Below, piece by piece: positions 1-16,935 of a stretch of 64,000 nucleotides of DNA. A program made the translations under genes and the position numbers. Each line of letters opens with the position of its first letter. Position 1 is the stretch's first letter. Origin of the DNA: Escherichia coli (GTDB taxonomy: Bacteria; Pseudomonadota; Gammaproteobacteria; Enterobacterales; Enterobacteriaceae); NCBI RefSeq assembly GCF_002854065.1, contig NZ_CP024147.1; one strand, written 5' to 3'. The notes under the pieces are model-generated. The model had not been told where the DNA came from, made no database searches, and was given only the letters and a program-made list of their open reading frames with translations.

Positions 1-629
1 AAAAAGAGCCGCCTGCACAGGCTGCTACACAATGAAAAAAGAATCATTCCACAAGCAAGGCACTTATGAGCAAGGTTAGTTGCCCTGGTGCTAACATAAC
101 GGTTAAGGCGGTAAGAACAAGCCACTAGCGGCTAAACGTTTTCCTTCCGAGTTGACAGTTTCCTGCTTGAGAGCTGCTCGTTTGTTAGCCAGAACAGGTT
201 AACGGATAAAATCAGTATATCCATAATAAATAAATAGTTGTTTAGCATTTATTTAAATAATGCCTTCCGAATAATACGCACTAAAATAATAAACAAGCTA
301 GGACTATCCAGTACTGCTAATTGATAGGCGCTCATGAAAACTGGAGAGATAATTGCTTCTGATTAGCCATCAATGCAATTACATCCTGGTCTGGGGATTC
401 CCGGGGGTTAAGTAGCGTGATTAACCATCATAAATATTGATTGAACTCATTTACCTAAAAAGCGCCATTTTGATAGGCTCGACTTAACTCGTTGACCATT
501 TACAGGATTGTAACGTTGGAAATCTTTTTTTAACCCACTGAAAAGTATCTCTTAAATATTTTTCATACATAAAAATTCATGGTCCGTTCAGTACGGATCC
601 GATTTTGTATGGGTTAAAAAAGGTACGTT

Positions 630-1238
630 ATGAAAGTTACATGGACCGTCACGCCTGTGGGGTATCAGCGCATCGCGAAACGATGCCCTTCATGCAACAT
701 TAAACGGGACTTCACGCCGTCAGGTGCATTTCGGGTTAATTCACAAAAGAAGGTGCTGGACGTGTGGAGTATCTATAAATGCACACACTGTGATTACACC
801 TGGAATATCTCCCTGTTTTCGCGTCTGCACGTCAGCAAAATTGACCGCCAGCTTTATCATCGACTAATGACAAACGATGCCGCCACGGTGCAGCACTTTG
901 CATGTGATATCGCGATGCTGAAGCGGAACAATGCAGAGCTATCGGGTCGGCCTGATTTTCACGTTCAGGAGCGCTGGCCGGTAAGCATCACCGCCCACCA
1001 GCGGGTTCGCGTTAGTGTCAGGATCTCCCGTTCATTTCAGGTAAGTCTGCTGTCGATTTTGAAGCAGCAGCTCATGCTGAGCGCTGGTGAGATTCAGAGA
1101 ATGGTGGAAGCAGGGCATATAAGTGGCGTTACACTGAAGTTGCTTAAATCGAGAAAGCTGAAGGCAGCGGAATATCACTTTCAGCTGACTGCGGAAATGT
1201 TATATGCCCGGCGCAGGATCGTTCTGACGCATCGTTAA
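630..1238 (+). CDS. hypothetical zinc-ribbon protein, DUF1062-like
   Basis: 202-aa ORF. It has two Cys pairs (CPSC, CTHC), and the block FRVNSQKKVLDVWSIYKCTHCDYTWN resembles DUF1062 as I recall that family. Purine-rich aaaaagg lies upstream of the ATG. Confidence 0.55.
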   Translation: MKVTWTVTPVGYQRIAKRCPSCNIKRDFTPSGAFRVNSQKKVLDVWSIYKCTHCDYTWNISLFSRLHVSKIDRQLYHRLMTNDAATVQHFACDIAMLKRNNAELSGRPDFHVQERWPVSITAHQRVRVSVRISRSFQVSLLSILKQQLMLSAGEIQRMVEAGHISGVTLKLLKSRKLKAAEYHFQLTAEMLYARRRIVLTHR

Positions 1239-1244
1239 AATATT

Positions 1245-1330
1245 AAGCTCCCCTGAGGTAATAAACGCCCGTGTGGCAGCGGTTCAACATAATGCCAGAT
1301 AGGCCAGGGATAGGGGAGCTTCAGTTTTTC
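1245..1330 (+). terminator. possible terminator-like long hairpin after the DUF1062-like gene
   Basis: Perfect 10-bp arms AAGCTCCCCT (1245-1254) and AGGGGAGCTT (1312-1321) are followed by CAGTTTTTC. The 57-nt loop is unusually large. Confidence 0.3.
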
Positions 1331-1454
1331 GGCTTCTGAATTGAGAACTTTAGTGAATGGGGTGATAGAGGATATCGCTTGAATTGTGCCGAGTCTAATG
1401 GTGCTTTAAGGATTGGGATATCGGGAAAGGTGTAGCTTAATTGAATGGGTTGTA

Positions 1455-1664
1455 TCAATGACCGCGTGAATCGGCAATGCGTTGCTGTAACCATAATTCG
1501 ACTTCACTTTTCTTCCAGCGGGAGCACCGGCCCAGCTTAATTGGCTTCGGGAACAGTCCGTCTTTTATCAACTTATAGAACCATTTATCCGTCAGCCCCG
1601 TTAGCTTTGTGATGAAGCGCATATCCACCAGTTGGTCATCAAGCAAAGAAATTTGTTCTGTCAT
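1455..1664 (-). CDS. AlpA-family phage/island transcriptional regulator (MerR-like HTH)
   Basis: MTEQISLLDDQLVDMRFITKLTGLTDKWFYKLIKDGLFPKPIKLGRCSRWKKSEVELWL matches the AlpA/prophage regulatory protein pattern. The start was trimmed to the internal Met (M24 of the tracked ORF). Confidence 0.8.
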   Translation of the reverse strand: MTEQISLLDDQLVDMRFITKLTGLTDKWFYKLIKDGLFPKPIKLGRCSRWKKSEVELWLQQRIADSRGH

Positions 1665-1771
1665 GATGCTGTCTTCCATTGTGGGATTATCCTGAGCTGG
1701 TGGTTGATTGCTCGTTACTACCAGCCCTTCCACATCAATGGATTGATACGTAAAAAAGTGCAGAACGTGAG

Positions 1772-2350
1772 TTATAGTGAGCGAGGACGCCCCAGTCCGC
1801 TGGGCGGCGGTACCTCACTGGCTCCGTAGTGATAGTGACCGTGCTTTTGCTCTTCTTTGGCAAGGTAGCTGATGATGTAGCGCAGGTTATCGATGGCTTC
1901 GGTATCATCGTAGTTCACCGGCTTATCAATACTGACGTCATAAGTAGGTTTGTATTCGCAGCGGTTGTAATAGCCTTCTCGTTGCGTTATTTCCCGCCAT
2001 ATTGTTCCGACTCTCTCAGCTATTGGGTAGGTAGCCTGGTTAAGGTGCCTGTCGAGATAGAACACGATATGAGCATGGCAGCCGTGGTCTACAGAGCTCT
2101 CCAGTACCCAGAAATACCCTGCCAGATTTGTGTGCTGCAGGGTGCGTTCAACCAGCATGCGTACCTCTCGCTCTGTTTCGTTCCATGAATGACGTTTAAA
2201 GCGCTCTGTACCTTTCTGATAGAACAGGTCGAGTCGGAGTGCCTGTATTTGGGAATATCGGTTCAGTAGCTGATTCAGGTGGTCATTGAGTAGAGACAGT
2301 AGAAACCAGTTCATCGTGTATCTGGGGTTAAATGGGTAAGGTGTATGCAT
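1772..2350 (-). CDS. YfjJ/YagK-family (inovirus Gp2-like) island protein
   Basis: The body from MHTPYPFNPRYT...LRLDLFY...GYFWVLE...HAHIVFYLD...LRYIISYLAKEEQK resembles the K-12 CP4 prophage YfjJ/YagK paralogs. The start was trimmed to M64 of the tracked ORF. Confidence 0.7.
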   Translation of the reverse strand: MHTPYPFNPRYTMNWFLLSLLNDHLNQLLNRYSQIQALRLDLFYQKGTERFKRHSWNETEREVRMLVERTLQHTNLAGYFWVLESSVDHGCHAHIVFYLDRHLNQATYPIAERVGTIWREITQREGYYNRCEYKPTYDVSIDKPVNYDDTEAIDNLRYIISYLAKEEQKHGHYHYGASEVPPPSGLGRPRSL

Positions 2351-2688
2351 TGATTTATCCTTTGTCAGGTGGAGTACAAAGGATTGGGATGGGATGTAAT
2401 TTTTAAGAGAAGCAGAGATACAGGGAACTGCGTATCCAGGGGAATACAGGCAGGGTTGCTTGTTGGGGAAGGGGCTATGAACAGAGTGGTATAGAAACAG
2501 GGAGTCCCCCTTAATTATACTAAAAACCCAAATGTTCATATCTGCTGTTGAACGATGCTAATGAGGTGAGCACAGGAGGATTGTAGGGTGAAAACAACAG
2601 GAATAATGCAGTAAAATGTCAGGCTTTTATCACAATTAAATCAGTAGGATATCAGTAAAAAATCAGCCATTCCTCAGCCTGTGACCCA

Positions 2689-2750
2689 CCTCCCTCTACC
2701 TAAAAGATGCTCATGCTAATCTGTGTTCAGGAGCCAGAATTAGAGGGAGG
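2689..2750 (+). promoter_or_regulatory. candidate anti-Shine-Dalgarno hairpin in the leader of the 305-aa gene
   Basis: CCTCCCTCTA (2689-2698) is the perfect reverse complement of TAGAGGGAGG (2741-2750). The latter is the SD located 5 nt upstream of the ATG at 2756. Confidence 0.35.
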
Positions 2751-2755
2751 AGACG

Positions 2756-3673
2756 ATGTTGCATTACGATATGATCCGCTATGAAATAATGTACCTAAAA
2801 ACGCTGGACAGGCATTTCAATACAGATCACTCGTTACTGTGCAGTACTTATGATAGGCCCGATGATTTTCGACGCTTGATCTCTCAGATACTTGAACGGC
2901 ATTTTCTTGGCGATCAGGACAGAATCAAAATTGCGCGGAAAACACTTAAAGAATGGGCTGACCTGCAACTGATTGATAAAGAATATTTTGATTGTTTCAA
3001 AGGCACACCAAGAGCATCGTGGTTTGCTCACCATTATATTTTTGAATACCCAGTATTACCTGCAGGGTTGAAACTTGGTGGGTTGGGGAATGACGTCGGT
3101 TGTTCAGGTGGTTTTAATTCTCTTTTAATGAACGATAATATCTTCACAAATCTTGATTTCTCTAATTTGAATATCGACCTGGACGATATAGATTGGGACC
3201 TGATAACAAATCCACAGGCCACTGCTTCGAAAAAAACGAAACGCGTTTTCTCCCGATTTTATCTGAACGCGGGAGCAAGTACCGATCTGTACAACCCCAC
3301 TCCGGTAACTGAGCGTGAACTCATCAATGGTGTGATGAGGTACATTGATGAAGCACCATGCTCACTTGGAGATAAGATCACTTATTTCAAAAAACTGCAT
3401 GAGCGCTGGCTTGAGCAATATGATTTTTTTCTAACAGATTTTGACTGGATGTCACGTGATGATGAAACTCAGTTAGTATATCTCTGGGACTATCTCAAAG
3501 GAAAGGGACGAATAGCGAGCTATCTTCGCCCTTATAATACGTCTATGCGTTATGACATGATTATTGCGGCTATGGATGTGTGGAACGCCCAACCTGAAGA
3601 GAAGCTGGAGTTTATTGAGAAGATGAAACATGCCTGGCAGGCAGCGAAATCTTACCGGAAATCTGCTAAATAG
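2756..3673 (+). CDS. hypothetical protein, 305 aa, no family recognised
   Basis: Strong SD (GAGGGAGGAG) upstream of the ATG. This is the only long ORF in the region. It is AT-rich and has an acidic, low-complexity centre (DFSNLNIDLDDIDWDL). Two similar helical segments occur: KTLKEWADLQLIDKEYFDCF and KKLHERWLEQYDFFLTDF. Confidence 0.7.
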   Translation: MLHYDMIRYEIMYLKTLDRHFNTDHSLLCSTYDRPDDFRRLISQILERHFLGDQDRIKIARKTLKEWADLQLIDKEYFDCFKGTPRASWFAHHYIFEYPVLPAGLKLGGLGNDVGCSGGFNSLLMNDNIFTNLDFSNLNIDLDDIDWDLITNPQATASKKTKRVFSRFYLNAGASTDLYNPTPVTERELINGVMRYIDEAPCSLGDKITYFKKLHERWLEQYDFFLTDFDWMSRDDETQLVYLWDYLKGKGRIASYLRPYNTSMRYDMIIAAMDVWNAQPEEKLEFIEKMKHAWQAAKSYRKSAK

Positions 3674-4035
3674 CGTTGTGATCGCAGTGATGTCTTGGTC
3701 TGATTTCTCAATGTAGTCATGAATCTGAGTCGACCCAGGGTCCTCTAACTATCTTTTCCTTGTCCCGTTAGGTACAAGCACATACTGTTAAAGATTAATA
3801 TGGCGGGGTATGGACGTCGGAGCTATGCCTACCTTTTAGATCGTTTGCTTCTGACTCGAAGCTTACAAGCTAGCTGATCTGAAGGTCCACTGTGAGCGAG
3901 GAGCGGACACCACGACTCACCAATAACTTGCTGCCCGCTTACGACCCAAAACCACCTATTGTATGTTAATTAATCTAGCAAACAAATGTTTAGCTTTTTA
4001 TCCGGCGAATGAAGCAAGAGAAATTGAACCCATTG

Positions 4036-4512
4036 CTAAGTATTACTGGGATTATTAAAAGGGATAATACTGGCCAATCCGTCATCTACATCAAGACCAT
4101 AGGCAACTGCTATTTCTGCCACAGAGGTACCACACTTTTTTCGCAGTTTAAAAAGCGCTCGCTCAAGCATAGATACTTGCACAGGATGATCAAATCGGAT
4201 GAACTGAGGGGAGCCAACACTGTCACCGAATTCTTGGCATGCCTTTCTCATTTTCCTTAATTGATTTGCTAAATATGAATCGCTCGGTAAACCTTGTAGG
4301 ATTTTAGTCAATTCAGATCTAATGCTGATAACACTCTGAATGCAATGACTAGTATCCTCCATATCGACAGGATTGAAAAGAACTCGCTTGTCCTCAAGAA
4401 AAATGACGATCTTCTTCGCTTCGTCAGCTTCTATTATTGGAGCATTCCACTGAATCCCGAATATAGGGCAGCTAAGGCCTGTAATATTTTTATAGATTCG
4501 TTCAAATTTCAA
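4036..4512 (-). CDS. hypothetical protein, 158 aa, no family recognised
   Basis: TTG start preceded by AAGGAG at a 6-nt spacing. It is the longest ORF of the region, is AT-rich, and converges on the 305-aa gene. Confidence 0.6.
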   Translation of the reverse strand: MKFERIYKNITGLSCPIFGIQWNAPIIEADEAKKIVIFLEDKRVLFNPVDMEDTSHCIQSVISIRSELTKILQGLPSDSYLANQLRKMRKACQEFGDSVGSPQFIRFDHPVQVSMLERALFKLRKKCGTSVAEIAVAYGLDVDDGLASIIPFNNPSNT

Positions 4513-4684
4513 AACTCACTCCTTTGATGGACACATAACGCCTATACAGTCATGATGAGAAACGGACTCGGTTCGAGTAATCTGTTAGATAGCATCACTC
4601 GTAACTACTGTAAAAATAGTTGCTATCATGCTTATTGTCACTATAAATATTACTTAATGTCAGTCAGTTAAGAACGATTATTAT

Positions 4685-4721
4685 CCCCCACAATATAAAA
4701 TGTGTGTGGGGGCTATTTTTT
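4685..4721 (+). terminator. intrinsic-terminator-like hairpin with its T-run on the + strand
   Basis: CCCCCACA (4685-4692) pairs with TGTGGGGG (4705-4712) across a 12-nt loop, followed by CTATTTTTT. On the - strand the hairpin is followed only by ATAATAATCG. Confidence 0.5.
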
Positions 4722-4738
4722 CCAAGAGGTAGGCTTCA

Positions 4739-4951
4739 TCAAAGATAAACTACATGAGAAGAACGCCTTAACTTGCTCAAATGGATTGTGTTACAACAGT
4801 CTTGGTAACGTTTGCTATTGGCACATAGCGGGTCTTCAACCCAGTTAGCTCGCCCATTCTGTGCAAGTAGTGGACAATGAATGAAAAGATATTGGGTCGG
4901 ATTAACCTTGCGAAGGCCATCTAAGTCTGTGACGAACATTTCTTCAAGCAT
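4739..4951 (-). CDS. small hypothetical Cys/His-containing protein (70 aa), possibly spurious or a gene remnant
   Basis: ORF lies 134 nt downstream of the helicase gene on the same strand. TGAGGG sits 8 nt upstream of the ATG. Sequence contains HCP...C...CC..H. No family recognised. Confidence 0.3.
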   Translation of the reverse strand: MLEEMFVTDLDGLRKVNPTQYLFIHCPLLAQNGRANWVEDPLCANSKRYQDCCNTIHLSKLRRSSHVVYL

Positions 4952-5085
4952 CTGAGGCCCTCAGCTCGCACCTAGAATTTTAATTTTGATGCATTTTGCC
5001 TTAGCTTGAGCATTGGAATGTGGCCTGATAACCGGTGTTTTCTTTTACTGGCCGTCCACAGACTCGATGACGCATTTATTCCCGA

Positions 5086-6903
5086 CTACCTTAAACCTGC
5101 CCCTCTCATTCGCTCCTCCAGTTCATCCAGAAATGGGGAACGCCCTAGACGCATAGGGCCGTAGCGACCATCAACAAAACCGGAATACAGCATATGCACC
5201 TCGTCCCGTGCGCGGGTCAGCCCCACATAGAAAAGACGTCGGCTTTCACGCAGCTTCTCTGGCGTCTCATTACGCCACGGCAAATTCCCCAGATCTAAGC
5301 CGACCATGATAACCACGTCATATTCGCAACCTTTGGCTGAGTGAAGTGTCAGCAAATTGAGGTGCTCAGGTGAACCGTCACGACCACCTAGGCTCGTGAT
5401 ATCCAACATCGCTAACGCACCGCCTTCGGCAAGTGCTGCAGTCATGCGATCTAGTTGCTCAGCCTGATCAGAAAGCGTTGGTTCAGTTGCCAGCAGGGAA
5501 TCAACGAGACCGTTGCGCAACGACGCGACAAAATCGGATGCAGAATGTTGGTCGGCACGAAGTGCCCAAAGTAGCCTGGTTAACTCCTGCCCCTTACTCC
5601 GGGCGCATGCATCATCCAGCCTTGCCCGATGAAATGCCAGATAACGGTCTATAAGTCCGCGCAGTTGAGGGCGCCCGATACGCCAACCGCCAGCACACCA
5701 TGCTGCGCAATCCTCCACCCAGCTCGTCAAGGCAACTTTGCGATAAGGTGCTGCGGTATCCACACGAATGTAATCAAAACCGCTAGCTGTCACCGCATCG
5801 GCCACAACATCGCCGGCACGGTAGTCCTTGTACAGAATGGCGATATCACCCAGTGTTCGGCCCGGCTTAGCAGCCAACGCAGCAGGAATAATCTGCTCGA
5901 CAGCATAGACAGCCTGATCCCCCAAGCCATCCGGACACAGCTGGAACGCAATGGTTGTCTGGCGGTTTGGGTCGTTTGCGCGATAACCACGAACCTCACC
6001 CAACACCATCTCCGATGCATTCACGATGTCCGCTCCTGATCTATAGTTCAACTGGAGCCGGACTGTTTCAACGTCTCTCCTGCCTGCCAGTTCTAGTAGT
6101 AACGCACCATCGGCACCAGTGAAACCGTAAATAGATTGGTCTGCATCACCCACTGCAAATAAGCGTACGCCTCCCTCGAAAGCCAGACGTTTGACCATAC
6201 GATGGAGTGCCACGCCCAAATCTTGATATTCATCTACCGCAAGGATCGGAAATTTCGCCTGTACTAGGGGCAGAACCCAATCATGCTCAATTATCAGACG
6301 CTGACCAAATATCACCATATCGTCGTAGTCTATCAGCCCTTGCTGCCGCAATGCAGCTTCGTAGGCCTCGGCCCATGCAGCGAGTTCCTCCTCTGTACGC
6401 CAGGCAACGCTGTTGCGATTCAACACCGAACGGCGATGCCGTCCGAGATCAATAGCCTTATAGGGATGGTTTGCGCCAAAGAGACGGTCACCAGATTGTC
6501 GAAGTAACCGTTCGCTCTCGCGCTGAGACGCTACTGACAGCGGAAATGGGATTGGCAGATCGGCCAGTCGCCCATAGGGCATCAACAGATGGCGCAAGCA
6601 GAACCCATGAACGGTTCCAATAAAGAGATTCGGTGCCTCTCTAAGCCCCAGCGCTTCGAGACGACGGGTTAGCTCGCGTGCGCATTCTTGGCTATATGTG
6701 ATACATGCCGCACCACGTGGAGCTTGAACATCCTCAGCTAGGATTCGTGCCAGCTTCAGCACAAGCGTCTTTGTCTTACCACTCCCCGGGCCCGCGAGCA
6801 CCACGCAGTGTCCCTGGGAGTGATACGCGGATAACTGGCCCGGATTCCCGGCCAGCTCGGCAGCCTGAGCTAAGTAGGCTGCACTGACACTACGTGACGG
6901 CAT
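5086..6903 (-). CDS. gajB: UvrD/Rep-family SF1 helicase, GajB-like (Gabija component B)
   Basis: Walker A AGPGSGKTKT, motif II VDEYQD, motif III GDADQSIYGFTGA, LNYRS, LHSAKGCEYD, and VGLTRARDEV. The ATG at 6903 overlaps the end of the upstream OLD-family gene by 14 nt. Confidence 0.85.
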   Translation of the reverse strand: MPSRSVSAAYLAQAAELAGNPGQLSAYHSQGHCVVLAGPGSGKTKTLVLKLARILAEDVQAPRGAACITYSQECARELTRRLEALGLREAPNLFIGTVHGFCLRHLLMPYGRLADLPIPFPLSVASQRESERLLRQSGDRLFGANHPYKAIDLGRHRRSVLNRNSVAWRTEEELAAWAEAYEAALRQQGLIDYDDMVIFGQRLIIEHDWVLPLVQAKFPILAVDEYQDLGVALHRMVKRLAFEGGVRLFAVGDADQSIYGFTGADGALLLELAGRRDVETVRLQLNYRSGADIVNASEMVLGEVRGYRANDPNRQTTIAFQLCPDGLGDQAVYAVEQIIPAALAAKPGRTLGDIAILYKDYRAGDVVADAVTASGFDYIRVDTAAPYRKVALTSWVEDCAAWCAGGWRIGRPQLRGLIDRYLAFHRARLDDACARSKGQELTRLLWALRADQHSASDFVASLRNGLVDSLLATEPTLSDQAEQLDRMTAALAEGGALAMLDITSLGGRDGSPEHLNLLTLHSAKGCEYDVVIMVGLDLGNLPWRNETPEKLRESRRLFYVGLTRARDEVHMLYSGFVDGRYGPMRLGRSPFLDELEERMRGAGLR

Positions 6904-8674
6904 CGCAGATATACTCCAGTGCTTCACGAATGTAATCCGGGCATACATCCTCCGACACCGAGGGTGCCAGCGCTTGGGCGAACCGCCCTTTGCCAATTCG
7001 CTCAATCAGTTTCAACAACCGGACATTATCAAGCTGGTCCGTGTCATCCACCCACGCCTGTATCCTGTTCAGAGTAGCTCGTCTAGGAGACAATTCCTGC
7101 TCGATAACCAACTTCATGGCTTCGCCCAGTCCACCGGTAAACAGCTCTGGCTCCAGAGTGGTCTCATTGACGAAGCATCCAAAATCTCCGGCACGTGCAA
7201 TCACCTCCTCGGTAGTCATATCATCATGATCAACATCGCTCTCAAGCACGTCTAAGATATTGATAAATCTCTTACGAACCAGCGGCTCTCCATCCTCCTC
7301 AGGATCGCGGTCTGTCAGAATCACATGTGGAATATTGAGTCCCCGCGGCCCTAGGAGCTTCACATACGGAGTGAAATTTGTTCCACCGATCGAGCACACC
7401 GTGATCCCAAGCATATCTAGGGGAATATTAAGAGCATCAGCGAATGCTGGGACAAGAAAGCGTTCAGCATCCCCTTCCACCAAGATCACCCCACGTGAAA
7501 AGAATATTTCGCCGCGAGTGACATCGATATAGCGCTGCAGATCATCTTCGTCCCGCGGCGTAAACGGTGCGTTTGCCGTTGAAACCGCAATCGTCTTCCC
7601 TCCCTCCGGATCATGGCGCAGCAAAACGATGGATCTGATTGGTGTGACGCTGGCGATATGCGGGGAATGGGTGGTCAGGATCGTTGTCAACGGTGTTCCT
7701 TCATCACCATTGTCTCCGTCAGTCCCTAGGAAATAACGGTAAACCAGGCGCTGTACGTGCGGATGTAGGTGCGCTTCCGGCTCCTCGACTACGAAAAACG
7801 TATGGTCTCGTTCTCCGTCATTAACAAGACGATCAAGTTCGAGGCTTTTTAGGGCAAGAAAAATCAGATTAGCTGTCCCCAGACTGGCATCGCCAATGCC
7901 ACGAATGCCACTATCAAGCAGCAAACGCAGGCTACGTAGCAGCGCATCAACGCGAGTCGGTGCAAGTCCGAGCGATACCGGAACGGCATGTTGCTCACCT
8001 GCGATAGCTATCAACCTTTCGCTAATTCGTTCGGCTGTCGCTGCCACCTCATCATGATCAGCCAGTTCCCGTTGAGCCTCATCAACTTGGGTTTGAATCT
8101 CCTCACGAGTCTCGTCGTCCAGAGATGCGGACAGTTCTTCAATAAGCGGTCTTAAGGGTGAATTACGCCAGCTTGAAAGGTCCTTCTCGGCATCACGCAA
8201 CGCGCCTTGAACATCAATGGGCAACATACGGCGAAAGGCACCACCAATATGCATGTCAGGATCAGCTCCACCGAAGATCACATACTCATAATCTTTTAAC
8301 GATTCAGGAGCTCGATTTAACGCGGTTTTGGGCTGAAAGCGGTAGGTAAGACGGGCCACCATCGGAGGCCCCGGATTTAGGACACAGTCATTCAGATGAG
8401 CCATCAATCGGGGATCGTCAGTGAACTCAGTAAGATCCACTGAAATTTCGATGGTCTCCCCCAGTTTGTCTTCGCCCAATCCATCCCAAAAATGTTCAAA
8501 ACCCAGTTGACGGTCACGCTCAGACAACCCTGGGTCAAGAATCAGCTGCAGGCCGCGAATAAAATTGCTCTTGCCAACCTTGTTTTCACCAACAATAACA
8601 ATACTCTCACCCGTTTCAACATCAACATCGGAGAAGTTGGCGAAATTAATTAACCGGATTCGGGAAATCCGCAT
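6890..8674 (-). CDS. gajA: OLD-family ATPase + TOPRIM nuclease, GajA-like (Gabija component A)
   Basis: N-terminal Walker A GENKVGKSN and Walker B/D-loop FFVVEEPEAHLHP. C-terminal TOPRIM signature VILVEGDAERF plus ILTDRDPEED. AGGGAGG SD is present. It is paired with a UvrD-like helicase, as in class 2 OLD/Gabija loci. Confidence 0.85.
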   Translation of the reverse strand: MRISRIRLINFANFSDVDVETGESIVIVGENKVGKSNFIRGLQLILDPGLSERDRQLGFEHFWDGLGEDKLGETIEISVDLTEFTDDPRLMAHLNDCVLNPGPPMVARLTYRFQPKTALNRAPESLKDYEYVIFGGADPDMHIGGAFRRMLPIDVQGALRDAEKDLSSWRNSPLRPLIEELSASLDDETREEIQTQVDEAQRELADHDEVAATAERISERLIAIAGEQHAVPVSLGLAPTRVDALLRSLRLLLDSGIRGIGDASLGTANLIFLALKSLELDRLVNDGERDHTFFVVEEPEAHLHPHVQRLVYRYFLGTDGDNGDEGTPLTTILTTHSPHIASVTPIRSIVLLRHDPEGGKTIAVSTANAPFTPRDEDDLQRYIDVTRGEIFFSRGVILVEGDAERFLVPAFADALNIPLDMLGITVCSIGGTNFTPYVKLLGPRGLNIPHVILTDRDPEEDGEPLVRKRFINILDVLESDVDHDDMTTEEVIARAGDFGCFVNETTLEPELFTGGLGEAMKLVIEQELSPRRATLNRIQAWVDDTDQLDNVRLLKLIERIGKGRFAQALAPSVSEDVCPDYIREALEYICDAVT

Positions 8675-9173
8675 TACTGCCTCCCTATCTTTTTAATTAT
8701 CTTCCCAAAATAAGAGTAGAACTCAAACCACAAGAGACTGCCTGGCACGACCAAATTTGCTGAGGGATACGGTTGCGATCAGAACGGTACTTGGTCATTG
8801 CACATTTTTTACTGTTCAAATCTATGCGTCCAACGAAGGTAACAACCTATCGTAACAGAGAGCTAAAACATGCCTATGATCCATCTCACATAGTGGCTGT
8901 TTGTCGTCACAGTCTTACAATGCACTCTGTGCAATGCATTACTCCCATTGGCCGACCAGACCGATGAACTGGCACGGCGGTGTGCTTCACACACTCTAGC
9001 GATACGGCACAATATCAACAGACACTGACTGGCCTCGTCAAAATAGTACAGTACAGACTTAGCACCGTCTGACTTTGGCGCTAAGCGGAGATCTTTCAGT
9101 CTTGGACTGCACAAAGTCCTTTGCGTTAATCTAAAATTCCAAATAATTTCAGACAGATATTATCTCATTGAAT

Positions 9174-9210
9174 CCCCGCCTTCCTGACTGGATCGCGGGG
9201 TTTTTAATTT
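9174..9210 (+). terminator. intrinsic-terminator-like hairpin immediately upstream of the GTPase gene
   Basis: CCCCGC (9174-9179) pairs with GCGGGG (9195-9200) across a 15-nt loop, followed by TTTTTAATTTTT. It ends 20 nt before the ATG at 9230. Confidence 0.5.
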
Positions 9211-9229
9211 TTCACGCTGAGACTTCTGT

Positions 9230-10105
9230 ATGAATAAACCTGACGGCCTTCAGGCCTTTGAACAACCGCTTGCGTCGCTTCCGTGCACACTTCGCCAGCT
9301 TATTCTTGAACGTATCCAGAACCTGACCCATTACGAGCCGGTGATTGGAATCATGGGCAAAAGTGGTACAGGTAAATCCTCTCTCTGCAACGAACTTTTC
9401 CGGGGCGAGGTGTCCCCGGTGAGTGACGTGAATGCCTGTACTCGCGACGTGCTGCGTTTCCGGTTACGCAGTGGGCGTCACAGCCTGGTGATTGTTGATT
9501 TACCGGGCGTGGGCGAAAACGGGCAGCGGGATCAAGAATACCGTGCCCTGTACCGTCGAATCCTGCCGGAGCTGGACCTGGTGCTGTGGGTCATTAAGGC
9601 CGATGATCGGGCACTAACCGTGGACGAGCAGTTCTGGCACGGTGTGATGCAAACTTACAGGCAAAAGGTACTGTTCGTGATTAACCAGGCCGACAAAATC
9701 GAACCCTGCCATGAATGGGATACCCTCACCAGCAAACCTTCACCGCACCAACTGGGAAATCTTAAAGCGAAGCAGGCTGCGATTATGGTGATGTTTAAAC
9801 CGCATCATCCGGTCTGTGTGGTGTCAGCCCGCACTGGATGGGGCATTGAGGAGATGGTGGCAGCCATGATGCGCTGTCTGCCTGACCGCGCCACCAGCCC
9901 GGTGGTGACACAACTGCACAGGAAACTCTGCACAGAGCCGGTAAAGTCGCAGGCTCGTGACAGTTTCGGTGAAGCTGTGGGCCGGGTTTTCGATACCGCA
10001 GAATCATCTTCGTTCCTGTCTACATCGCTGAAAACGGTGATTCGTAGCGTGCGTGATGCGGTGGTGTCGGTCGCACGGGCCGTCTGGGACTGGATATTCT
10101 TCTGA
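9230..10105 (+). CDS. YeeP/YfjP/YkfA-family GTPase (CP4-type island)
   Basis: G1 GKSGTGKSS, G3 DLPGVGE and G4 NQADK motifs. Overall resemblance to the K-12 prophage GTPases YfjP/YkfA. Confidence 0.85.
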   Translation: MNKPDGLQAFEQPLASLPCTLRQLILERIQNLTHYEPVIGIMGKSGTGKSSLCNELFRGEVSPVSDVNACTRDVLRFRLRSGRHSLVIVDLPGVGENGQRDQEYRALYRRILPELDLVLWVIKADDRALTVDEQFWHGVMQTYRQKVLFVINQADKIEPCHEWDTLTSKPSPHQLGNLKAKQAAIMVMFKPHHPVCVVSARTGWGIEEMVAAMMRCLPDRATSPVVTQLHRKLCTEPVKSQARDSFGEAVGRVFDTAESSSFLSTSLKTVIRSVRDAVVSVARAVWDWIFF

Positions 10106-10348
10106 TATCGCAATTTTCTCTGCGAATGATGAACTTGTTGTTAATGATGTGTTGATTGTGGACACGTCCTTTCCATTGCGTTTTATCATCAACAAAATCA
10201 GGAGAAGCATCATTATCTGTCAGACGAGCGCTCACAAGGCCGGGCTGCTCATAAAAAATAGTTCCGATGTTGTCCATACCCTGTCCACCCCTTCCTTTAA
10301 AGTAATCATTATTAATTCAGAGAGTTAACTTCTCAGGAGAAATCTTTC

Positions 10349-11065
10349 ATGACGCTTCAGGAGCGGCGACATGACCGGCTTGCCGTCAGGTTGTCGTTGA
10401 TTATCAGCCGCCTGGTGTCCGGTGAAACTCTGTTTATTCGCAAACTGGCAACTGAATTCGGGGTGTCAGAGCGCACGTTACGTCGTGACTTTCGGGAACG
10501 TCTGATGTATCTCGACCTGGATTATTACCAGGGGCAGTGCAGTCTGCGCTCGGATATTCACAGTACGCGGCAGGAAATAGATATTCTGACCTTTGCTCAC
10601 CGTACGGGGCTGGCCGGGGTTTTCCCGGGCTTTGACCGGCGACTGGTCAGCAGCCTGCTGGACTGTGATGATCGACCCTGTCTGGTATGGCATCAGGACA
10701 GACCTCATCCCCCGGCAGGAAAGCTCTCCTTCTACAGGCTGGTCAGAGCTATTTCTGAATGTCAGCGCATCACCATTCTGACTGAAGGGGAGCGTCATGA
10801 GGCCGTTGCACCTTACCGGCTAATCGCTCTGGACGGTTACTGGTATCTGGTCGCTGAACATAACAGGCAATTACGTGTCTTCCGGCTGGATGAGATTCAT
10901 CTGGTAAGGCCATCGCGGGAAACATTTATTCGCAGTGAGCTTCTCTATCAGCTGTCGGAGGATAAACATTTTATCTCTGCCTTACCTCATTTCCGTTTTA
11001 TTCAGCAGTCGCTGAATTCATTTTCTCCCTCAGAAAGTCGGGGGCAATCCGGACAAACTGATTAG
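10349..11065 (+). CDS. HTH + WYL-domain transcriptional regulator (YfjR-like)
   Basis: N-terminal HTH ([19 protein letters not shown]). C-terminal WYL-like core ([28 protein letters not shown]). Confidence 0.8.
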
Positions 11066-11100
11066 AGATGGTCTCCATAATTAAATGTAAGGTTAATCTA

Positions 11101-11553
11101 ATGAAAGAATTGAAATTGTTGTCTTTACTGCCAGTCATATTGTTCCCCTTACTTATCGCAGGTAATGCTCACGCAGCACGTCCTTATAGCGGATTCCTGC
11201 CTGCAGCAGTGAATAATAAGAGTGGGAATATATTCTGGTGTGATGCCCACCGCCAGGTCAGAAAACTGTGTACAGCGACGGAAGTGGATTCAATGGGATG
11301 GTTTATTGTTGTTCGCTCGAAACCTTCCAGAGATTGTCCGGGGGGCCTTTGGGGGTGGATCACTCCCAGTAAAGACGATGTAGCAACAGGGTATACCATT
11401 ACGCCAGGTAAAGAATTCAATCTCACCATGAAGGATATGTGCAGTCCCGATATGAAAGTAACGTTCCGCCCGAATAAAAAGGACCCTCGTTATGACGATC
11501 TCGTCGGGATTTATGCAGGGAAAGAAGCTTTTCGCTACAAACAAATAAAATAA
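11101..11553 (+). CDS. small exported protein (signal peptide), island-encoded
   Basis: MKELKLLSLLPVILFPLLIAGNAHA signal-peptide-like N-terminus. The start was trimmed to M12 of the tracked ORF. Confidence 0.55.
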   Translation: MKELKLLSLLPVILFPLLIAGNAHAARPYSGFLPAAVNNKSGNIFWCDAHRQVRKLCTATEVDSMGWFIVVRSKPSRDCPGGLWGWITPSKDDVATGYTITPGKEFNLTMKDMCSPDMKVTFRPNKKDPRYDDLVGIYAGKEAFRYKQIK

Positions 11554-11624
11554 TCCAACTGTTTTTTCGTTACTTTATTGTTTTAAACAACAAAAGCCTT
11601 ATTACATGATTTGAGGACAACATT

Positions 11625-12098
11625 ATGCGACTGCCTTACGTAATATTTACATTAGCTATGCTGGCTTCTGTATCAACAGCACAGGCTATTCCCAATATGT
11701 GGACGAGTGGTTTTGGGATGGGCGTGACCGAATATATTATTACCAGCCCGGAGAAGGTGGTGTTTAATCTGAACTGTACTGGCAATCCGGATGCGCAGAA
11801 TATTCTGCAACACGGTGTTGATCTCACCCTGCCTGATGGAACATCAGTAAGCTCTCATGACGACGGAACGGAAATCACGGTCGTCATGGATAACAGTCAG
11901 TATCCGTTACCGTCATTCCTCGGCTGGCGAAACGGTGACAATGCCTGGGTGTCATTTATTGACGCCCTGAGCCAGTCTGCGAATTTTGATGTTTACGTCA
12001 ACGATAAAAAAGTCGGCACCTTCAGTCCGGGGCTGAAGAATACGCAGAAAGAGCTGTCTGACCTCAGTGAGTGCCGGACCACACACTACAGCGATTAG
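11625..12098 (+). CDS. small exported protein (signal peptide), island-encoded
   Basis: MRLPYVIFTLAMLASVSTAQA signal-peptide-like N-terminus. GAGGA lies upstream of the ATG. Confidence 0.55.
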   Translation: MRLPYVIFTLAMLASVSTAQAIPNMWTSGFGMGVTEYIITSPEKVVFNLNCTGNPDAQNILQHGVDLTLPDGTSVSSHDDGTEITVVMDNSQYPLPSFLGWRNGDNAWVSFIDALSQSANFDVYVNDKKVGTFSPGLKNTQKELSDLSECRTTHYSD

Positions 12099-12152
12099 TT
12101 ACTTACATTTCAGACCTCTCCAGCCCGCTACGCACCAACACCAGATAGCAAC

Positions 12153-12190
12153 AGGCCATGCTCCTTCGGGAACATGGCCTTTTTTGTTTT
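12153..12190 (+). terminator. rho-independent terminator
   Basis: AGGCCATG...CATGGCCT stem with a TTCG-containing loop, followed by TTTTTTGTTTTT. Confidence 0.6.
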
Positions 12191-12218
12191 TATTTGATTA
12201 TCAGATAAGGAGTTAGCT

Positions 12219-13040
12219 ATGCGACTAGCCAGCCGCTTTGGCCGTATAAACCAGATACGCCGTGACCGGCCTCTGACCCACGAAGAGCTGATGAGTCATG
12301 TACCCAGCGTGTTCGGGAGTGACAAGCATGAATCTCGTTCAGACAGGTACACCTACATCCCGACCATCACCATCCTCGAAAGCCTGCAGCGGGAAGGCTT
12401 TGAGCCGTTCTTTGCCTGCCAGACAAAAGTTCGCGACCAGAGCAAGCGGGAGCACACCAAGCACATGCTTCGACTGCGTCGCTCCGGGCAACTGACCGGG
12501 CATCAGGTGCCGGAAATCATTCTACTTAACAGCCATGACGGCTCATCAAGCTACCAGATGCTGCCGGGCCTGTTTCGTGGCGTCTGTACCAACGGCCTGG
12601 TCTGCGGTCAGTCATTCGGAGAAGTGCGGGTACCGCATAAAGGGAATGTTGTCGAGAAGGTGATTGAAGGGGCTTACGAAGTGCTCGGTGTGTTTGACCG
12701 GGTGGAGGAGAAGCGCGATGCAATGCAGTCACTGGCACTGCCAGAACCAGCCCGTAACGCCCTGGCGAATGCCGCGCTGAAGTATCGCTTTGGTGAAGAC
12801 CACCAGCCGGTCACGGTATCGCAGTTGCTGACCCCACGTCGCCGGGAGGACTACAGCGATGACCTGTGGACCGTATACCAGCGCGTGCAGGAGAACCTGA
12901 TGAAAGGAGGTCTGTCAGGGCGAACCGCTCAGGGGAAAAGCAGCCGCACCCGTGCTGTTATCGGCATTGACGGCGATGTGAAACTCAATCGCGCCCTGTG
13001 GATTATGGCAGAAAACATGCTCGAATTTTTCGGGCGTTAA
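12219..13040 (+). CDS. DUF932 protein (YfjQ/YafZ family)
   Basis: 273 aa. Near-collinear similarity to K-12 YafZ/YfjQ as recalled (ERYTYIPTITILE, HTKHMLRLRR, PEIILLNSHDGSSSYQM, FGEVRVPHKG). Confidence 0.85.
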   Translation: MRLASRFGRINQIRRDRPLTHEELMSHVPSVFGSDKHESRSDRYTYIPTITILESLQREGFEPFFACQTKVRDQSKREHTKHMLRLRRSGQLTGHQVPEIILLNSHDGSSSYQMLPGLFRGVCTNGLVCGQSFGEVRVPHKGNVVEKVIEGAYEVLGVFDRVEEKRDAMQSLALPEPARNALANAALKYRFGEDHQPVTVSQLLTPRRREDYSDDLWTVYQRVQENLMKGGLSGRTAQGKSSRTRAVIGIDGDVKLNRALWIMAENMLEFFGR

Positions 13041-13070
13041 ACAACCGTTCCGGCATAAGGAGATAGTTTA

Positions 13071-13511
13071 ATGGATACCCACAACCCTGAGTTTGCTGAG
13101 CAGGCAGCAATTACTGCCTCGGTAGTCCCTGACGAGTTACGTATCGGCTTCTGGCCAAAGCGCTTTGGATCTATCCCACAATGGATAACCCTTGAGCCCC
13201 AAATATTTGGCTGGATGGATCGTCTGTGCGCTGATTACAGCGGCGGCGCCTGGAGCTTTTACACACTCAGCAACGGCGGCGCATTTATGGCTCCGGAGCC
13301 CGACGGTGAGAAGTGGACGTTGTTCAACCCGATGAATGGAAACGATGCGGAGATGAGCGGAGAGGCTGCCGGTATAGCGGCCTGCCTGATGGCATACAGC
13401 CACCACGCTTGTCGCACCGAATGTGACGCGATGACTGAGCACTATTATCGCTTACGTGACTACGCGCTAAACCATCCGGAATGCAGCGCCATTATGTATC
13501 TAATCGACTGA
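13071..13511 (+). CDS. antirestriction protein (YfjX/YafX/KlcA-like family)
   Basis: FWPKRFGSIPQWITLEPQIFGWMDRLCADYSGGAWSFYTLSNGGAFMAPEPD matches the CP4 prophage antirestriction paralogs. Confidence 0.8.
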   Translation: MDTHNPEFAEQAAITASVVPDELRIGFWPKRFGSIPQWITLEPQIFGWMDRLCADYSGGAWSFYTLSNGGAFMAPEPDGEKWTLFNPMNGNDAEMSGEAAGIAACLMAYSHHACRTECDAMTEHYYRLRDYALNHPECSAIMYLID

Positions 13512-13523
13512 GGAATACCTGAC

Positions 13524-14066
13524 ATGAATATCGCATTATCCCCGGTATCATCGCAGCCTGAACTCTTTCCGCTGGCGGTTATGGCCCAGCATAGTTGCCT
13601 GCTCCCCGCGACCTCCGGATTGACACCTTATGCCCAACGGACCATTCGACGTGCTATCAACCTGCTGGATAAATATCTGCGCCAGCCCGGCATGTCCTTT
13701 ACCTCAAGCACGGCTGCCCGTGACTGGCTTCGGTTACAGCTGGCAGGACAAGAACGGGAAGTGTTTATGGTGCTCTATCTCGATAACCAGCACCGTTTAC
13801 TGGAGAGTGAAACGCTATTTGCCGGTTCGGTTAACCATGTCCAGGTCCATCCCCGTGAGGTGGTGAAGTCAGCGCTTCGCTTCAATGCTGCTGCTGTTGT
13901 GCTGGCGCATAACCATCCATCCGGTGATCCGGAGCCCAGCCAATGTGACCGCAACATTACGGGCAGGCTTAAAGAAGCGCTGGCACTGGTTGATGTGAAC
14001 ACTCTCGATCATCTGGTTATCGGTTCAGATGGAATTGTGTCGTTTGCAGAGCGAGGCTGGATATGA
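13524..14066 (+). CDS. RadC-like JAB/MPN domain protein (YkfG/YfjY/YeeS family)
   Basis: JAMM motif HNHPSGDPEPS. Overall similarity to YkfG. The true start may be the internal Met at 13581. Confidence 0.8.
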   Translation: MNIALSPVSSQPELFPLAVMAQHSCLLPATSGLTPYAQRTIRRAINLLDKYLRQPGMSFTSSTAARDWLRLQLAGQEREVFMVLYLDNQHRLLESETLFAGSVNHVQVHPREVVKSALRFNAAAVVLAHNHPSGDPEPSQCDRNITGRLKEALALVDVNTLDHLVIGSDGIVSFAERGWI

Positions 14067-14076
14067 GGGCACTTCA

Positions 14077-14418
14077 ATGAAATCTACTGACTCAGAGAAC
14101 GATTCATTTCTCAAGTGGGGTCTGAATCGTAATGTGACACCTTGCTTTGGCGCTCGTCTGGTACAGGAGGGAAACCGGCTGCACTATCTGGCTGACCGGG
14201 CCAGTATCACCGGTAAGTTCAGCGAAGCAGAATGTCTTAAGCTGGATATGGCATTCCCGCATTTTATTAGCCAGATGGAATCGATGCTGACTACTGGTGA
14301 AATGAATCCTCGCCATGCCCACTGTGTCACCCTGTACCACAATGGTTTCACCTGCGAAGCCGATACCCTTGGCAGTTGCGGCTACGTATACATCGCCGTT
14401 TACTCCACCCATCGTTAA
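14077..14418 (+). CDS. CbeA/YfjZ/YafW-family type IV antitoxin
   Basis: [29 protein letters not shown]...[33 protein letters not shown] parallels K-12 CbeA (YeeU). The start was trimmed to M17 of the tracked ORF. Confidence 0.85.
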
Positions 14419-14438
14419 CTACTTTCACAAGAGCAAAT

Positions 14439-14780
14439 ATGAAAACTCTACCTGCAACAAATCCGCAGGCGGCGAAGCTATGTCTGTCGCCCGTGGCTGT
14501 CTGGCAAATGCTGCTTGCACGCCTGCTGGAACAACATTATGGCCTGACACTCAACGACACGCCATTCAGTGATGAAACGGTAATTCAGCAACATATCGAT
14601 GCCGGTATATCTTTGGCCGATGCCGTTAATTTTCTGGTGGAAAAGTACGGGCTGGTTCGTATTGATCGCAGGGGATTCGACTGGCAAGAACAGTCCCCAT
14701 ATCTGCGGGCAGTCGATATTCTGCGGGCGCGACAGGCAACTGGTTTATTGAAAAGAAATCGTATTAGCGCGGCACGGTGA
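14439..14780 (+). CDS. CbtA/YkfI/YpjF-family toxin
   Basis: [46 protein letters not shown]... matches the CbtA family. It lies directly downstream of the antitoxin gene. Confidence 0.85.
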
Positions 14781-14845
14781 ATATTGGGAATAGCCTTCCT
14801 GATTCACACTGCAGCTTTCCTTACTTATTTAATTTACTCATTCCA

Positions 14846-14880
14846 AAAAGCACCTGCCGATGCTGGTTGGTGCTTTTACT
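14846..14880 (+). terminator. rho-independent terminator after the toxin gene
   Basis: AAAAGCACC (14846-14854) pairs with GGTGCTTTT (14869-14877), followed by a T-rich tail. Confidence 0.5.
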
Positions 14881-15043
14881 TATATGGACGAAATATCATG
14901 CAAATAGAAGCTGTAATTTTAACTGGGCACATTATCGCAAGTACAATCCGGGAATGCTGGGCCGTCGTTGTTGATGGTTTTGACGCATGCGGCGAACAAG
15001 CTTATGATCCAGCTTAATTTCTTTTCCTCATGAAGGGACGGGT

Positions 15044-16051
15044 ATGGGCAACAGAATGTGGATGATTCGCGGTGACGGCGGCAAGCTCTATGACGATTTT
15101 CGCGATAAGCAAATTGTAGGCATCGGTTGGTCTCAGCTGGCTCCATTAGTCAAACCCGGCCTGTCCCGAGCCCAGTTACTCGCCTTATACCAGGAGGCAG
15201 ATCCCTTAACAAAGCTGGGAACAGCCCGTTCTGGTGCATCGCAGGTCTGGCGTTTTGTGAATGAGATCCAAAAGGGTGATTGGGTTATTACCTATTCGCC
15301 AGCCAACCGTACTTATTTGCTAGGCAAAGTCACATCCGACTTCCAATATCATCCTGAATGGGTGGAAGAGGGGATGGGGATCGCTCGGCAGGTTAAATGG
15401 AATACTCAAGAAATCGACCGCGATAGACTGTCTGTTGCTACCAAAAACACATTGGGTTCTACGCTGACGGTTTTTCAGCTTCCAGAATATGCGCTAGAAG
15501 AGCTTTTGCAGGATAAGAAACCCACTATAGATGTAATTACTCAGAATCCAGTTGCAATGGATGAAGATGAGGTCGTTTCTGATCCGCTTCGCGATATGGA
15601 AATGCTGGCGTTTGAGGGTATCAAAGATCGTATTAACTCTCTTGATTGGGACGAGATGCAAAATCTTGTTGCCGGAGTTTTACGCAGTATGGGCTATAAA
15701 ACGCAGGTTTCACCTGCGGGAGCCGATCGGGGTAAAGACATCATTGCTTCACCTGATGGGTTCGGTTTTGAAAATCCGCGTATTATCGTTGAGGTAAAGC
15801 ACCGCAGGGAACAGATGGGAAGCCAACAGATACGCAGCTTTATCGGCGGTCGCCATAAAGACGATCGCGGGCTTTATGTCAGTACAGGGGGTTTTACGAA
15901 AGATGCTCGATATGAAGCCGACCGTTCGACGATACCACTGACGCTCTGGACACTTGATGATCTCGTCCGTGCGCTTATTGAGAACTACGAACAAGTTGAT
16001 ATCGAGACTAAACTTTTGGTGCCTCTGAAGAAAACTTTCCTGCCTGCCTGA
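15044..16051 (+). CDS. Mrr-catalytic-domain (PD-(D/E)xK) restriction endonuclease with a distinct, possibly PUA/EVE-like, N-terminal domain
   Basis: C-terminal GADRGKDIIA...RIIVEVKHRRE...LYVSTGGFTKDA gives a D...ExK core and the Mrr-type TGGF/SxxA tail. The N-terminal 150 aa (MWMIRG..IVGIGWS..GDWVITYSP..YLLGKVTS..ARQVKW) is unlike the E. coli Mrr N-terminus. AAGGGA SD is present. Confidence 0.75.
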   Translation: MGNRMWMIRGDGGKLYDDFRDKQIVGIGWSQLAPLVKPGLSRAQLLALYQEADPLTKLGTARSGASQVWRFVNEIQKGDWVITYSPANRTYLLGKVTSDFQYHPEWVEEGMGIARQVKWNTQEIDRDRLSVATKNTLGSTLTVFQLPEYALEELLQDKKPTIDVITQNPVAMDEDEVVSDPLRDMEMLAFEGIKDRINSLDWDEMQNLVAGVLRSMGYKTQVSPAGADRGKDIIASPDGFGFENPRIIVEVKHRREQMGSQQIRSFIGGRHKDDRGLYVSTGGFTKDARYEADRSTIPLTLWTLDDLVRALIENYEQVDIETKLLVPLKKTFLPA

Positions 16052-16211
16052 ATCTTGCTTTGATAGCCATATCGGTGTTCTACTGGTATGGCTTTATACC
16101 CACTTGCAATGTCTATTTTTTATACGGACTTTAACTTGTGGGTACAAGTGTGGGTATAACTATTTATTCCTATTTATAAACTGCATTGATATCAGTCTGT
16201 TAGGTGTGAAA

Positions 16212-16249
16212 TTCGAGTCCGGCCTTCGCACCTTCGCACCTTCGCACCA
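16212..16249 (+). repeat. tRNA-Leu (leuX) 3-prime-end remnant / attR-like island junction with an 8-bp triplication
   Basis: TTCGAGTCCGGCCTTCGCACC matches the leuX 3-prime end (GGTTCGAGTCCGGCCTTCGGCACCA) except for one missing G. CCTTCGCA occurs three times in tandem (16223-16246), followed by CCA. Confidence 0.7.
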
Positions 16250-16450
16250 TCGGAACATCAATAGACATCAACGGACGTTTTTTTATGACTGAAATCCGCG
16301 CCACACAAGGCTTTTCGCTATTTTTCGCTCAACCTAAGTCAACCTACATCAACTTACTGATGTGGATACAGCTACAGCTGCGGCTATACCCCGATTCGAT
16401 AATGTTTGTACCCACACAAAACCCTTGAAAGGCTACAAGGCTGAAATTGT

Positions 16451-16935
16451 CTAAACCATAGAGATGATTTTTATGATCCAGTCTTTCTCTTGTTGAGATA
16501 GTTCCAGTTTGCTCACTCGTGTTAAGAAGGTATTGATCACCTGAACATCCGAATTGGTGAGCCTATTTAATAGAGCGGGTGGTATACCTTTACTAACAAT
16601 CGCTTTGCGGTGACTTTCGTAGTTTTTATTACTCATTGTTGATCCTAAAAAATCATTGTATGGCGGCATTGATCGTTTCCAGCAACCTTTACTTACTCAC
16701 TTCGAACTGCATCCTCGTAGACTGTTCCACTACAATAATCGAAAAGGCGCGGATGTCCATTCAGGTATCCCGCTAATACGTATAGCAATAACAATGGCTT
16801 ATGCGGCGCGCGCTGTTCACCCTTGTGCCAGATTTTTATATTGGCAATTGCCTGCTGTAGCGATTTACTGGAAGCTATTGATATCCCTGGCAGTGAAATA
16901 ATTGCGATCATGCTCGCAAATTTTCTGCTGTTCAA
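16451..16935 (-). pseudogene. decayed gene for a modified-DNA (sulfur-binding-domain-like) reader of a type IV restriction protein
   Basis: Two consecutive ORFs lie in different frames (16693-16935 and 16451-16669). The first carries RAPHKPLLLLYVLAGYL, a motif I associate with ScoMcrA-type SBD/HNH restriction proteins. No nuclease domain follows. Confidence 0.35.

Follow-up and report, generated by a model that had tools for sequence, protein, structure and literature searches.

Does the damaged piece of leuX that closes a genomic island in Escherichia coli belong to that island, or to something older? The question is raised by positions 16212 to 16249 of a 64,000-nucleotide stretch of E. coli DNA (hereafter the window), which read TTCGAGTCCGG(CCTTCGCA)x3CCA, that is, the 3' end of the tRNA gene leuX minus one G, with an 8-bp unit present three times in tandem. 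A sequence-only reading had taken this for the attR-like junction of an island integrated at leuX, and its description of the sequence and all of its coordinates, including the G loss, the three units and the CCA, were exact on re-inspection. Our analysis suggests an older origin for the fragment. With a probability that we put at about 0.8, it is a displaced leuX tail that represents the reused fossil attL of an older P4-like island, now decayed and carrying a repeat expanded by slippage.

The junction and the DNA on its two sides

Compared with leuX of K-12, whose end is TTCGAGTCCGGCCTTCGGCACCA (L004:2468; also given as ...GCCGGTTCGAGTCCGGCCTTCGGCACCA), the window has 17 identical bases, lacks one G, contains two extra 8-bp units and has the terminal CACCA. 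The 17-mer has a single match in the 64-kb window, at 16212, where the chance expectation for an exact 17-mer is ~7.5e-6 and a shuffle control gave 0.12 matches at up to three mismatches. The full 23-mer of the leuX end has no match in the window at up to three mismatches, because the deletion shifts the register, and a search across the window for further leuX fragments, which would mark internal junctions, found none besides that at 16212. ARAGORN detected no tRNA gene in the whole window. Tandem Repeats Finder reports a period of 8, 3.8 copies and 95% matches for 16223-16252, with a fractional copy that corresponds to the CCATCG opening the flank. The 17-mer is the direct repeat that this site has in common with intact leuX, and it contains the probable strand-exchange region, GAGTCCGGCCTTCG. 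Coordinates are collected in Table 1.

Table 1. Features of the window around the leuX fragment, and elements found to the left of the same tail in other sequences
Feature	Position or sequence	Strand	Copies (n)	Basis or remark
Distal 16 kb of a leuX-integrated island that extends upstream of the window	1..16211	+		match to NZ_CP178662.1
Mrr-type restriction endonuclease	15044-16051	+		Pfam Mrr_cat match
Exact 17-nt copy of the leuX 3' end, TTCGAGTCCGGCCTTCG (T-loop through acceptor 3' strand)	16212..16228	+		leuX alignment
Copy-number-variable 8-bp tandem repeat of CCTTCGCA	16223..16246	+	3	Tandem Repeats Finder; alleles of other genomes
Position at which one G of leuX is missing, CTTCGGCACCA to CTTCG-CACCA	16228..16229	+		leuX alignments
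CACCA, the discriminator base and CCA end of the displaced leuX copy	16245..16249	+		alignment with intact leuX ends
Imperfect fourth copy, CCATCGGA	16247-16254	+		directly 3' of the three CCTTCGCA units
Probable fossil leuX-to-integrase spacer of an older P4-like island	16250..16436	+		spacer alignments
Decayed leuX terminator (hairpin and T-run)	about 16264-16284	+		folding energy comparison
Deletion junction	16437..16440	.		spacer alignments; comparison with L007
150-nt N-terminal remnant of a phosphorothioated-DNA-binding (PT-DNA-binding) restriction endonuclease gene	16729..16878	-		RefSeq annotation of the identical sequence in L001 and L002
HNH endonuclease gene (after the endonuclease remnant)	17015-17665			RefSeq annotation; ORF list
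Abi/DUF262/DUF3696 island left of the tail	L001		3	
PAI II536-like end left of the tail	L009; L015		2; 4	
16-kb RelE/HTH island left of the tail	L008/L026		7	own integrase, 79% identical to that of the sister island
fos/IS region left of the tail	L010			diverged (88.8%) flank variant with two degenerate repeat units
P4-like prophages left of the tail	L021-L023		4, 3, 2	

The left side of the junction is the end of a CP4-type island. Positions 1-16184 are 99.969% identical to the island of strain VTB96935v (NZ_CP178662.1, L002), in which an intact leuX and an intact P4-like integrase gene lie 38 kb upstream of the same junction. The integrase of VTB96935v, which shares 58% identity with P4 Int, has Arm-DNA-bind_3, Phage_int_M and Phage_integrase domains. 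Since the window contains neither leuX nor an integrase gene, we infer attL of the source genome from this near-identical sister, and leuX is expected ~22 kb before the start of the window in its own genome. Two proposals of the sequence-only reading are supported by the comparison, namely that the fragment lies at the right-hand, attR-type junction of a leuX island, and that leuX should be located upstream in the same orientation.

Within the window the island encodes a Gabija-like nuclease/helicase pair, a GTPase, a DUF932 protein, antirestriction, RadC and YeeU/CbtA proteins, and the Mrr-type endonuclease next to the junction. It is a defence-type island (for example at about 5086-8674 on the - strand), in which the Gabija-like pair consists of an ATP-dependent nuclease and a helicase. 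In VTB96935v the Gabija-like pair also lies between leuX/integrase and the junction. The part of the VTB96935v island beyond the window includes a type I restriction-modification system, an AAA ATPase and a long pAgo gene beside a PD-(D/E)XK nuclease.

The right side begins with DNA of a different kind. Positions 16250-16436 can be aligned with the 198-nt leuX-int spacer of VTB96935v over its full length (152 matches, 35 mismatches and 6 gaps), and the homology stops ~10 nt short of the position of the int ATG. The same segment shares 82% identity with an internal junction in L005, where the sequence continues with the N-terminus of an integrase (MALSDVKVRSAKPE), and 84% with the L006 spacer, which is of the K-12 type. 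Its terminator hairpin has a folding energy of -4.4 kcal/mol (z -0.1), compared with -14.5 and -15.7 kcal/mol behind live leuX copies (z -2.6 and -4.9). The deletion at 16437..16440 has removed the old island's body, from int onward, together with the C-terminal part of a backbone endonuclease gene. The backbone then resumes at 16441, and L007 has the sequence from 16441 on with a different left neighbour. A leuX-int spacer with a decayed terminator, followed by backbone, suggests that fragment and flank together are a fossil attL, left by an older P4-like island that has lost its body. In tandem arrays of L005 and L011, a G-deleted leuX fragment still precedes the remnant of an integrase, which indicates that newcomers do insert between leuX and resident elements.

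Inside the spacer, Tandem Repeats Finder also reports a 10-bp tandem repeat of the TCAACC type (TCAACCTACA x2.9; 16329-16357). (T/C)CAAC motifs are kept in all aligned spacer types, and are therefore candidate arm-type integrase-binding sites.

The order of genes further to the right is the PT-DNA-binding endonuclease remnant, which is the first recognisable backbone gene, the HNH endonuclease gene, a nanS fragment, nanM, nanC and fimB, which on the K-12 map is chromosomal backbone distal to the leuX hot spot. Homology to the complete restriction endonuclease gene of strain 536 (L003) starts at 16735. Decay in the two strains is reciprocal, in that the PT-DNA-binding endonuclease gene is a 150-nt stump here and complete in strain 536, while the HNH gene is complete here and mostly deleted in strain 536; the nanS fragment is found in both. 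The ~290 nt between the fossil spacer and the endonuclease stump (16441-16734) are absent from K-12 and 536, and are also present in L007, a genome without the leuX fragment.

Some part of 15700-16800 is matched by 2,914 of 5,426 complete E. coli genomes. Most of these matches start at 16207-16212, so the junction is a boundary between variable and conserved DNA. Left of 16212, the window and VTB96935v differ at one position in 6.5 kb, and to the right they have diverged by ~2.8%. The change falls inside 16212-16267, so that divergence between the two rises from 0.03% to ~2.8% at the fragment. The right flank of the window is identical to that of strains with other islands. This sharp change of ancestry indicates that the island and the adjacent backbone have separate histories.

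Copy number of the repeat and the elements that share the tail

Variation in the number of units (n) was surveyed with a query of eight synthetic copies anchored in the right flank, for which the start of the alignment reports copy number. This query matched 1,003 of the 5,426 complete genomes, 778 of them across the junction. In a sample spaced evenly along the ranking, 36 of 46 junction-bearing records have n=3, five have n=2, three have n=4, and one each has n=5 and n=7; sequences were checked directly for n=2, 3, 4 and 7. Short exact queries recovered the junction in 727 genomes, of which ~94-114 have at least four copies and ~600 are consistent with three, but these proportions are approximate, because with queries of 40-56 nt the imperfect fourth copy lets alignments run on and mixes alleles. 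The allele frequencies given here therefore rest on the right-anchored query, and not on the coverage and identity bands of short queries.

In all, about 730-780 of the 5,426 genomes (~14%) carry the junction, with n ranging from 2 to 7 and three copies in roughly 80%, and the same 48-mer, or a version with one mismatch, occurs in several hundred complete genomes. The sequence-only reading had proposed that the junction be compared across E. coli genomes and had called the triplication unusual; the comparison reveals a common tail, of which three copies is the modal allele. We also scanned one genome per GTDB species with GGCCTTCGCACCTTCGCACC, which returned chance matches in unrelated GC-rich bacteria and one contig, and is uninformative on other Escherichia. 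A 2.8-kb contig of a "Lachnospiraceae MAG" (L015, CAKRJY010000038.1) carries the E. coli junction with a PAI II-like end and n=4, and is probably a binning contaminant.

The left side of the junction is occupied, in one genome or another, by at least six different elements, P4-like prophages among them (Table 1). In strain 13E0767, a P4-like prophage is the sole DNA between an intact leuX and an n=3 fragment. The presence of the same tail beside at least six unrelated elements speaks against the earlier picture of a lesion made by the present island. One could still suppose that the present island entered a virgin leuX, and that a one-off G deletion and triplication followed in one lineage, so that the fragment would be a private attR. 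This would fit the position and orientation of the fragment, and the integrase gene of the sister genome does adjoin leuX. However, the flank is integrase-upstream DNA and not virgin chromosome, the identical tail is found in hundreds of genomes with unrelated left neighbours, and the carriers are not one clone with one island. The 99.97%-identical sister island, moreover, sits on a different backbone haplotype and has n=4. A private attR is therefore extremely unlikely.

If the tail does not belong to the present island, it might still travel with mobile elements, as a G-deleted, repeated stretch of their attP that is deposited at each integration. The occurrence of the G deletion on several flank types gives the appearance of such travel. 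The attP core of P4, however, is intact and unrepeated, yet P4-like prophages end on the repeated tail, and integration through an attP so damaged would leave leuX inactive. Copy number also follows the flank. One island type has n=3 or n=4. In the RelE/HTH family, n is 7 on a window-type flank (L008) but 1 on the different flank of L005. Values of 2, 3 and 4 all occur beside the same P4-like prophage end. Because n differs with the flank within the RelE/HTH family and the P4 attP is unrepeated, we conclude that the repeat travels with the flank and not with the elements, and deposition from attP seems highly improbable.

The P4-like prophages also help to place the point of strand exchange. 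In NC_001609 the attP core is annotated as GAGTCCGGCCTTCGGCACCA, preceded by TTT. The right ends of P4-like prophages consist of the P4 arm, TTTGAGTCCGG and the damaged tail, with TTT followed by GAGTCCGGCCTTCG. The switch at GAGTCCGGCCTTCG suggests that, for P4-like elements, exchange takes place within this sequence, upstream of the lesions. Exchange at this place is reportedly in line with Williams (2002). A start in the T-loop has been described for the att sites of P4-like integrases (bioRxiv 10.1101/2020.11.02.365908), and fits exchange within GAGTCCGGCCTTCG. Since P4-like prophages have the fragment as their right junction, and the sister integrase resembles P4 Int, the fragment is probably a substrate of P4-family integrases.

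Elements of the RelE/HTH type have a different and more degenerate left half, with GCGGTGCGG before CCTTCG, and the exchange point may not be the same for all elements. We dropped an attempt to narrow the crossover to CGGCCTTCG by means of these elements, since their left half resembles a longer and degenerate leuX piece that lacks the T-loop.

Origin of the repeat and a possible history of the locus

The flank itself offers a source for the repeat. An intact attL of the window type (W) reads CCTTCGGCA CCATCGGAA, in which two imperfect copies are already present. After loss of the G, both imperfect copies are in an 8-nt register, CCTTCGCA CCATCGGA. Expansion of the repeat is seen only on the W flank; G-deleted fragments with K-12-type and L005-type flanks are single-copy. 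The restriction of expansion to the W flank, together with differences in n between near-identical islands and within backbone haplotypes, favours an origin by replication slippage.

Repeated or aberrant strand exchange by an integrase, which would duplicate part of the crossover core, is the other mechanism that the sequence-only reading had offered. A unit of 8 bp does resemble the overlap regions of tyrosine recombinases in length, and lesions (a G here, GC in strain 536) cluster at one spot beside the shared 17-mer. However, tyrosine recombinases perform conservative strand exchange without DNA synthesis, and the unit lies 3' of the exchange region that P4-like junctions define, which makes an integrase origin unlikely. 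In addition, n=3 and n=4 occur in islands that are 99.97% identical, single backbone haplotypes include values of n between 2 and 7, as slippage would predict, and expansion is found only where the flank supplies the imperfect second copy CCATCGGA. Of the two mechanisms put forward earlier, slippage is thus the better supported by the variation in n, and we consider manufacture of the copies by an integrase very improbable.

Polymorphic copy number is also a property of phase-variable loci, and the repeat might be a functional contingency locus or RNA element that tunes, for example, the expression of a neighbouring gene. No ORF of at least 80 amino acids crosses the repeat, a scan for promoters and terminators found no promoter-like site adjoining it on the + strand, and a search of 15900-17000 against Rfam gave no match. 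Moreover, the adjacent terminator is decayed, and the integrase gene that the spacer once served downstream has been deleted. A functional role of this kind is the least probable of the explanations that we considered.

Taken as a fossil attL, the locus probably arose as follows. An older P4-like island would have left its attL, comprising the tRNA 3' end, the terminator and the spacer upstream of the integrase gene, at leuX, and the remainder of that island would have been deleted up to the backbone restriction endonuclease gene. Each element that later entered leuX would have brought its own intact tRNA 3' end, and would have pushed the resident 3' copy to the far side, where this copy becomes the right boundary, or attR side, of any occupant. 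Freed from selection for tRNA function, the fragment would then have decayed, with loss of one G and degradation of the terminator hairpin, and the proto-repeat CCTTCG(G)CA beside CCATCGGA would have expanded by replication slippage into an 8-bp microsatellite of 2-7 copies. If P4-family integrases exchange strands within GAGTCCGGCCTTCG, and hence left of the lesions, the chromosome would keep the broken tail with its flank while the elements on the left turn over.

Recurrent G loss, excision and the leuX hot spot

Loss of a single G before CACCA is not confined to the W flank (16228/16229), but is also found on the L005-type flank (L005:2992-3004) and on the K-12-type flank (L011, about 2480-2510). 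On the K-12-type flank it occurs in up to 213 genomes, counted as those in which the best match to a G-deleted K-type query reaches 99% identity or more. Strain 536 (L003:1393-1413) has a 2-nt loss at the same spot. The attR of GI-pheV, an island with a P4-type integrase at a different tRNA gene, has an analogous single-G deletion in its tRNA 3' end (TTCGATTCCGAGTCCGG-CACCA), with no tandem repeat reported (PMC11537424, Table 1). Independent neutral decay is not expected to hit the same base repeatedly. The cause might be a hot spot of slippage, the survival of those islands that are costly to excise, or a scar left where the exchange region ends.

The sequence-only reading had anticipated that the triplication would probably cripple excision. 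This expectation is not supported, since the lesions are 3' of the inferred exchange region, and PAI II536 is reported to excise despite similar damage. Its excision reportedly occurs by site-specific recombination of its 18-bp direct repeats, which include the preceding G (PMC9686529), and the 17-nt identity that it uses is intact at the window fragment. Re-integration into the deletion mutant 536-21 restores "the complete tRNA gene" (PMC3202238), which implies that excision in strain 536 leaves leuX truncated. By analogy, excision at the present locus would more probably yield a truncated leuX than be blocked. It would leave an empty site of the form leuX(1-79)+CACCTTCGCACCTTCGCACCA, and an attP with an intact GGCACCA.

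None of the 5,426 genomes joins the 5' part of leuX to the repeated tail. The best match over the full length, at 90%, is a natural empty site in HCP6S3_I1 (L013, NZ_CM149868.1, 6057-6700), in which leuX is intact according to ARAGORN. The order there is ahr, intact leuX, directly followed by the truncated restriction endonuclease gene, HNH, nan and fim. Its spacer is chimeric: the part beside leuX is of the K-12 type, and the remainder, from about 16290, has the same sequence as the window. The two parts meet within a 28-mer common to both types, CTGAAATCCGCGCCACACAAGGCTTTTC. The island of HCP6S3_I1 thus appears to have been lost through homologous recombination in the spacer, which would have removed the damaged tail and kept leuX intact.

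A displaced tDNA fragment at the leuX/P4 site is already known, the damaged repeat of PAI II536 is a close counterpart, and no new mechanism is involved. As in the Islander principle (PMC4383910), the fragment is a tRNA 3' end in the orientation of the gene and, to judge from VTB96935v, lies at the opposite end of the island from a regenerated tRNA gene with a tyrosine integrase; arrays of islands in tandem, each with a fragment of its own, are also known. Unlike the fragments of that scheme, the one studied here would be older than the present island, reused by many elements, and equipped with an 8-bp microsatellite. PAI II536 (PMC9686529, PMC3202238) uses the same tRNA gene and the same family of P4-like integrases, and shares (G)TTCGAGTCCGGCCTTCG. 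Its right repeat passes from TTCGAGTCCGGCCTTCG directly into ACCA (CCTTCG/ACCA), and is therefore damaged at the same position, but differs in its flank, in the loss of 2 nt and in having no tandem repeat. It also lies ~3.4 kb upstream of a complete endonuclease gene, of which the window keeps only the N-terminal remnant.

P4 itself attaches in leuX through the 20-bp core given above, which is not complete at the fragment: only its first 14 nt are contiguous, the G is lost, and the two extra 8-bp units place 16 nt before CACCA. P4-like prophages elsewhere nevertheless use exactly this fragment as their right junction, whereas the element to the left here is a 38-kb defence island and not P4. 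A full-text search of the literature for the repeat sequence gave no matches. A reused fossil attL in ~14% of genomes, an 8-bp microsatellite with n=2-7, and the recurrent loss of a G are not described in the searchable literature.

For the delimitation of leuX islands in E. coli, the junction is an exact and widely common right-hand landmark, the practical value of which is modest. The "direct repeat" at the end of an island need not come from the adjacent island, and a repeat of variable length could mislead programs that call island boundaries, or serve as a typing marker.

We also entertain the doubtful, though not negligible, idea that the damaged tail contributes to continued occupation of the locus, or that integrase chemistry lies behind the recurrent loss of the G. 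With a defective 3' copy on the chromosome side, precise excision would leave a dead leuX, and repair would come only with a new element that has an intact 3' end. The result would be a self-perpetuating docking site that must stay occupied, at which replacement is favoured over loss, and the recurrent G loss could be a "lock" kept by selection, or a scar from the border of exchange by P4-family integrases, and not random decay. More generally, the findings support a view of tRNA hot spots as sites of serial element replacement against a fixed, decaying chromosomal relic.
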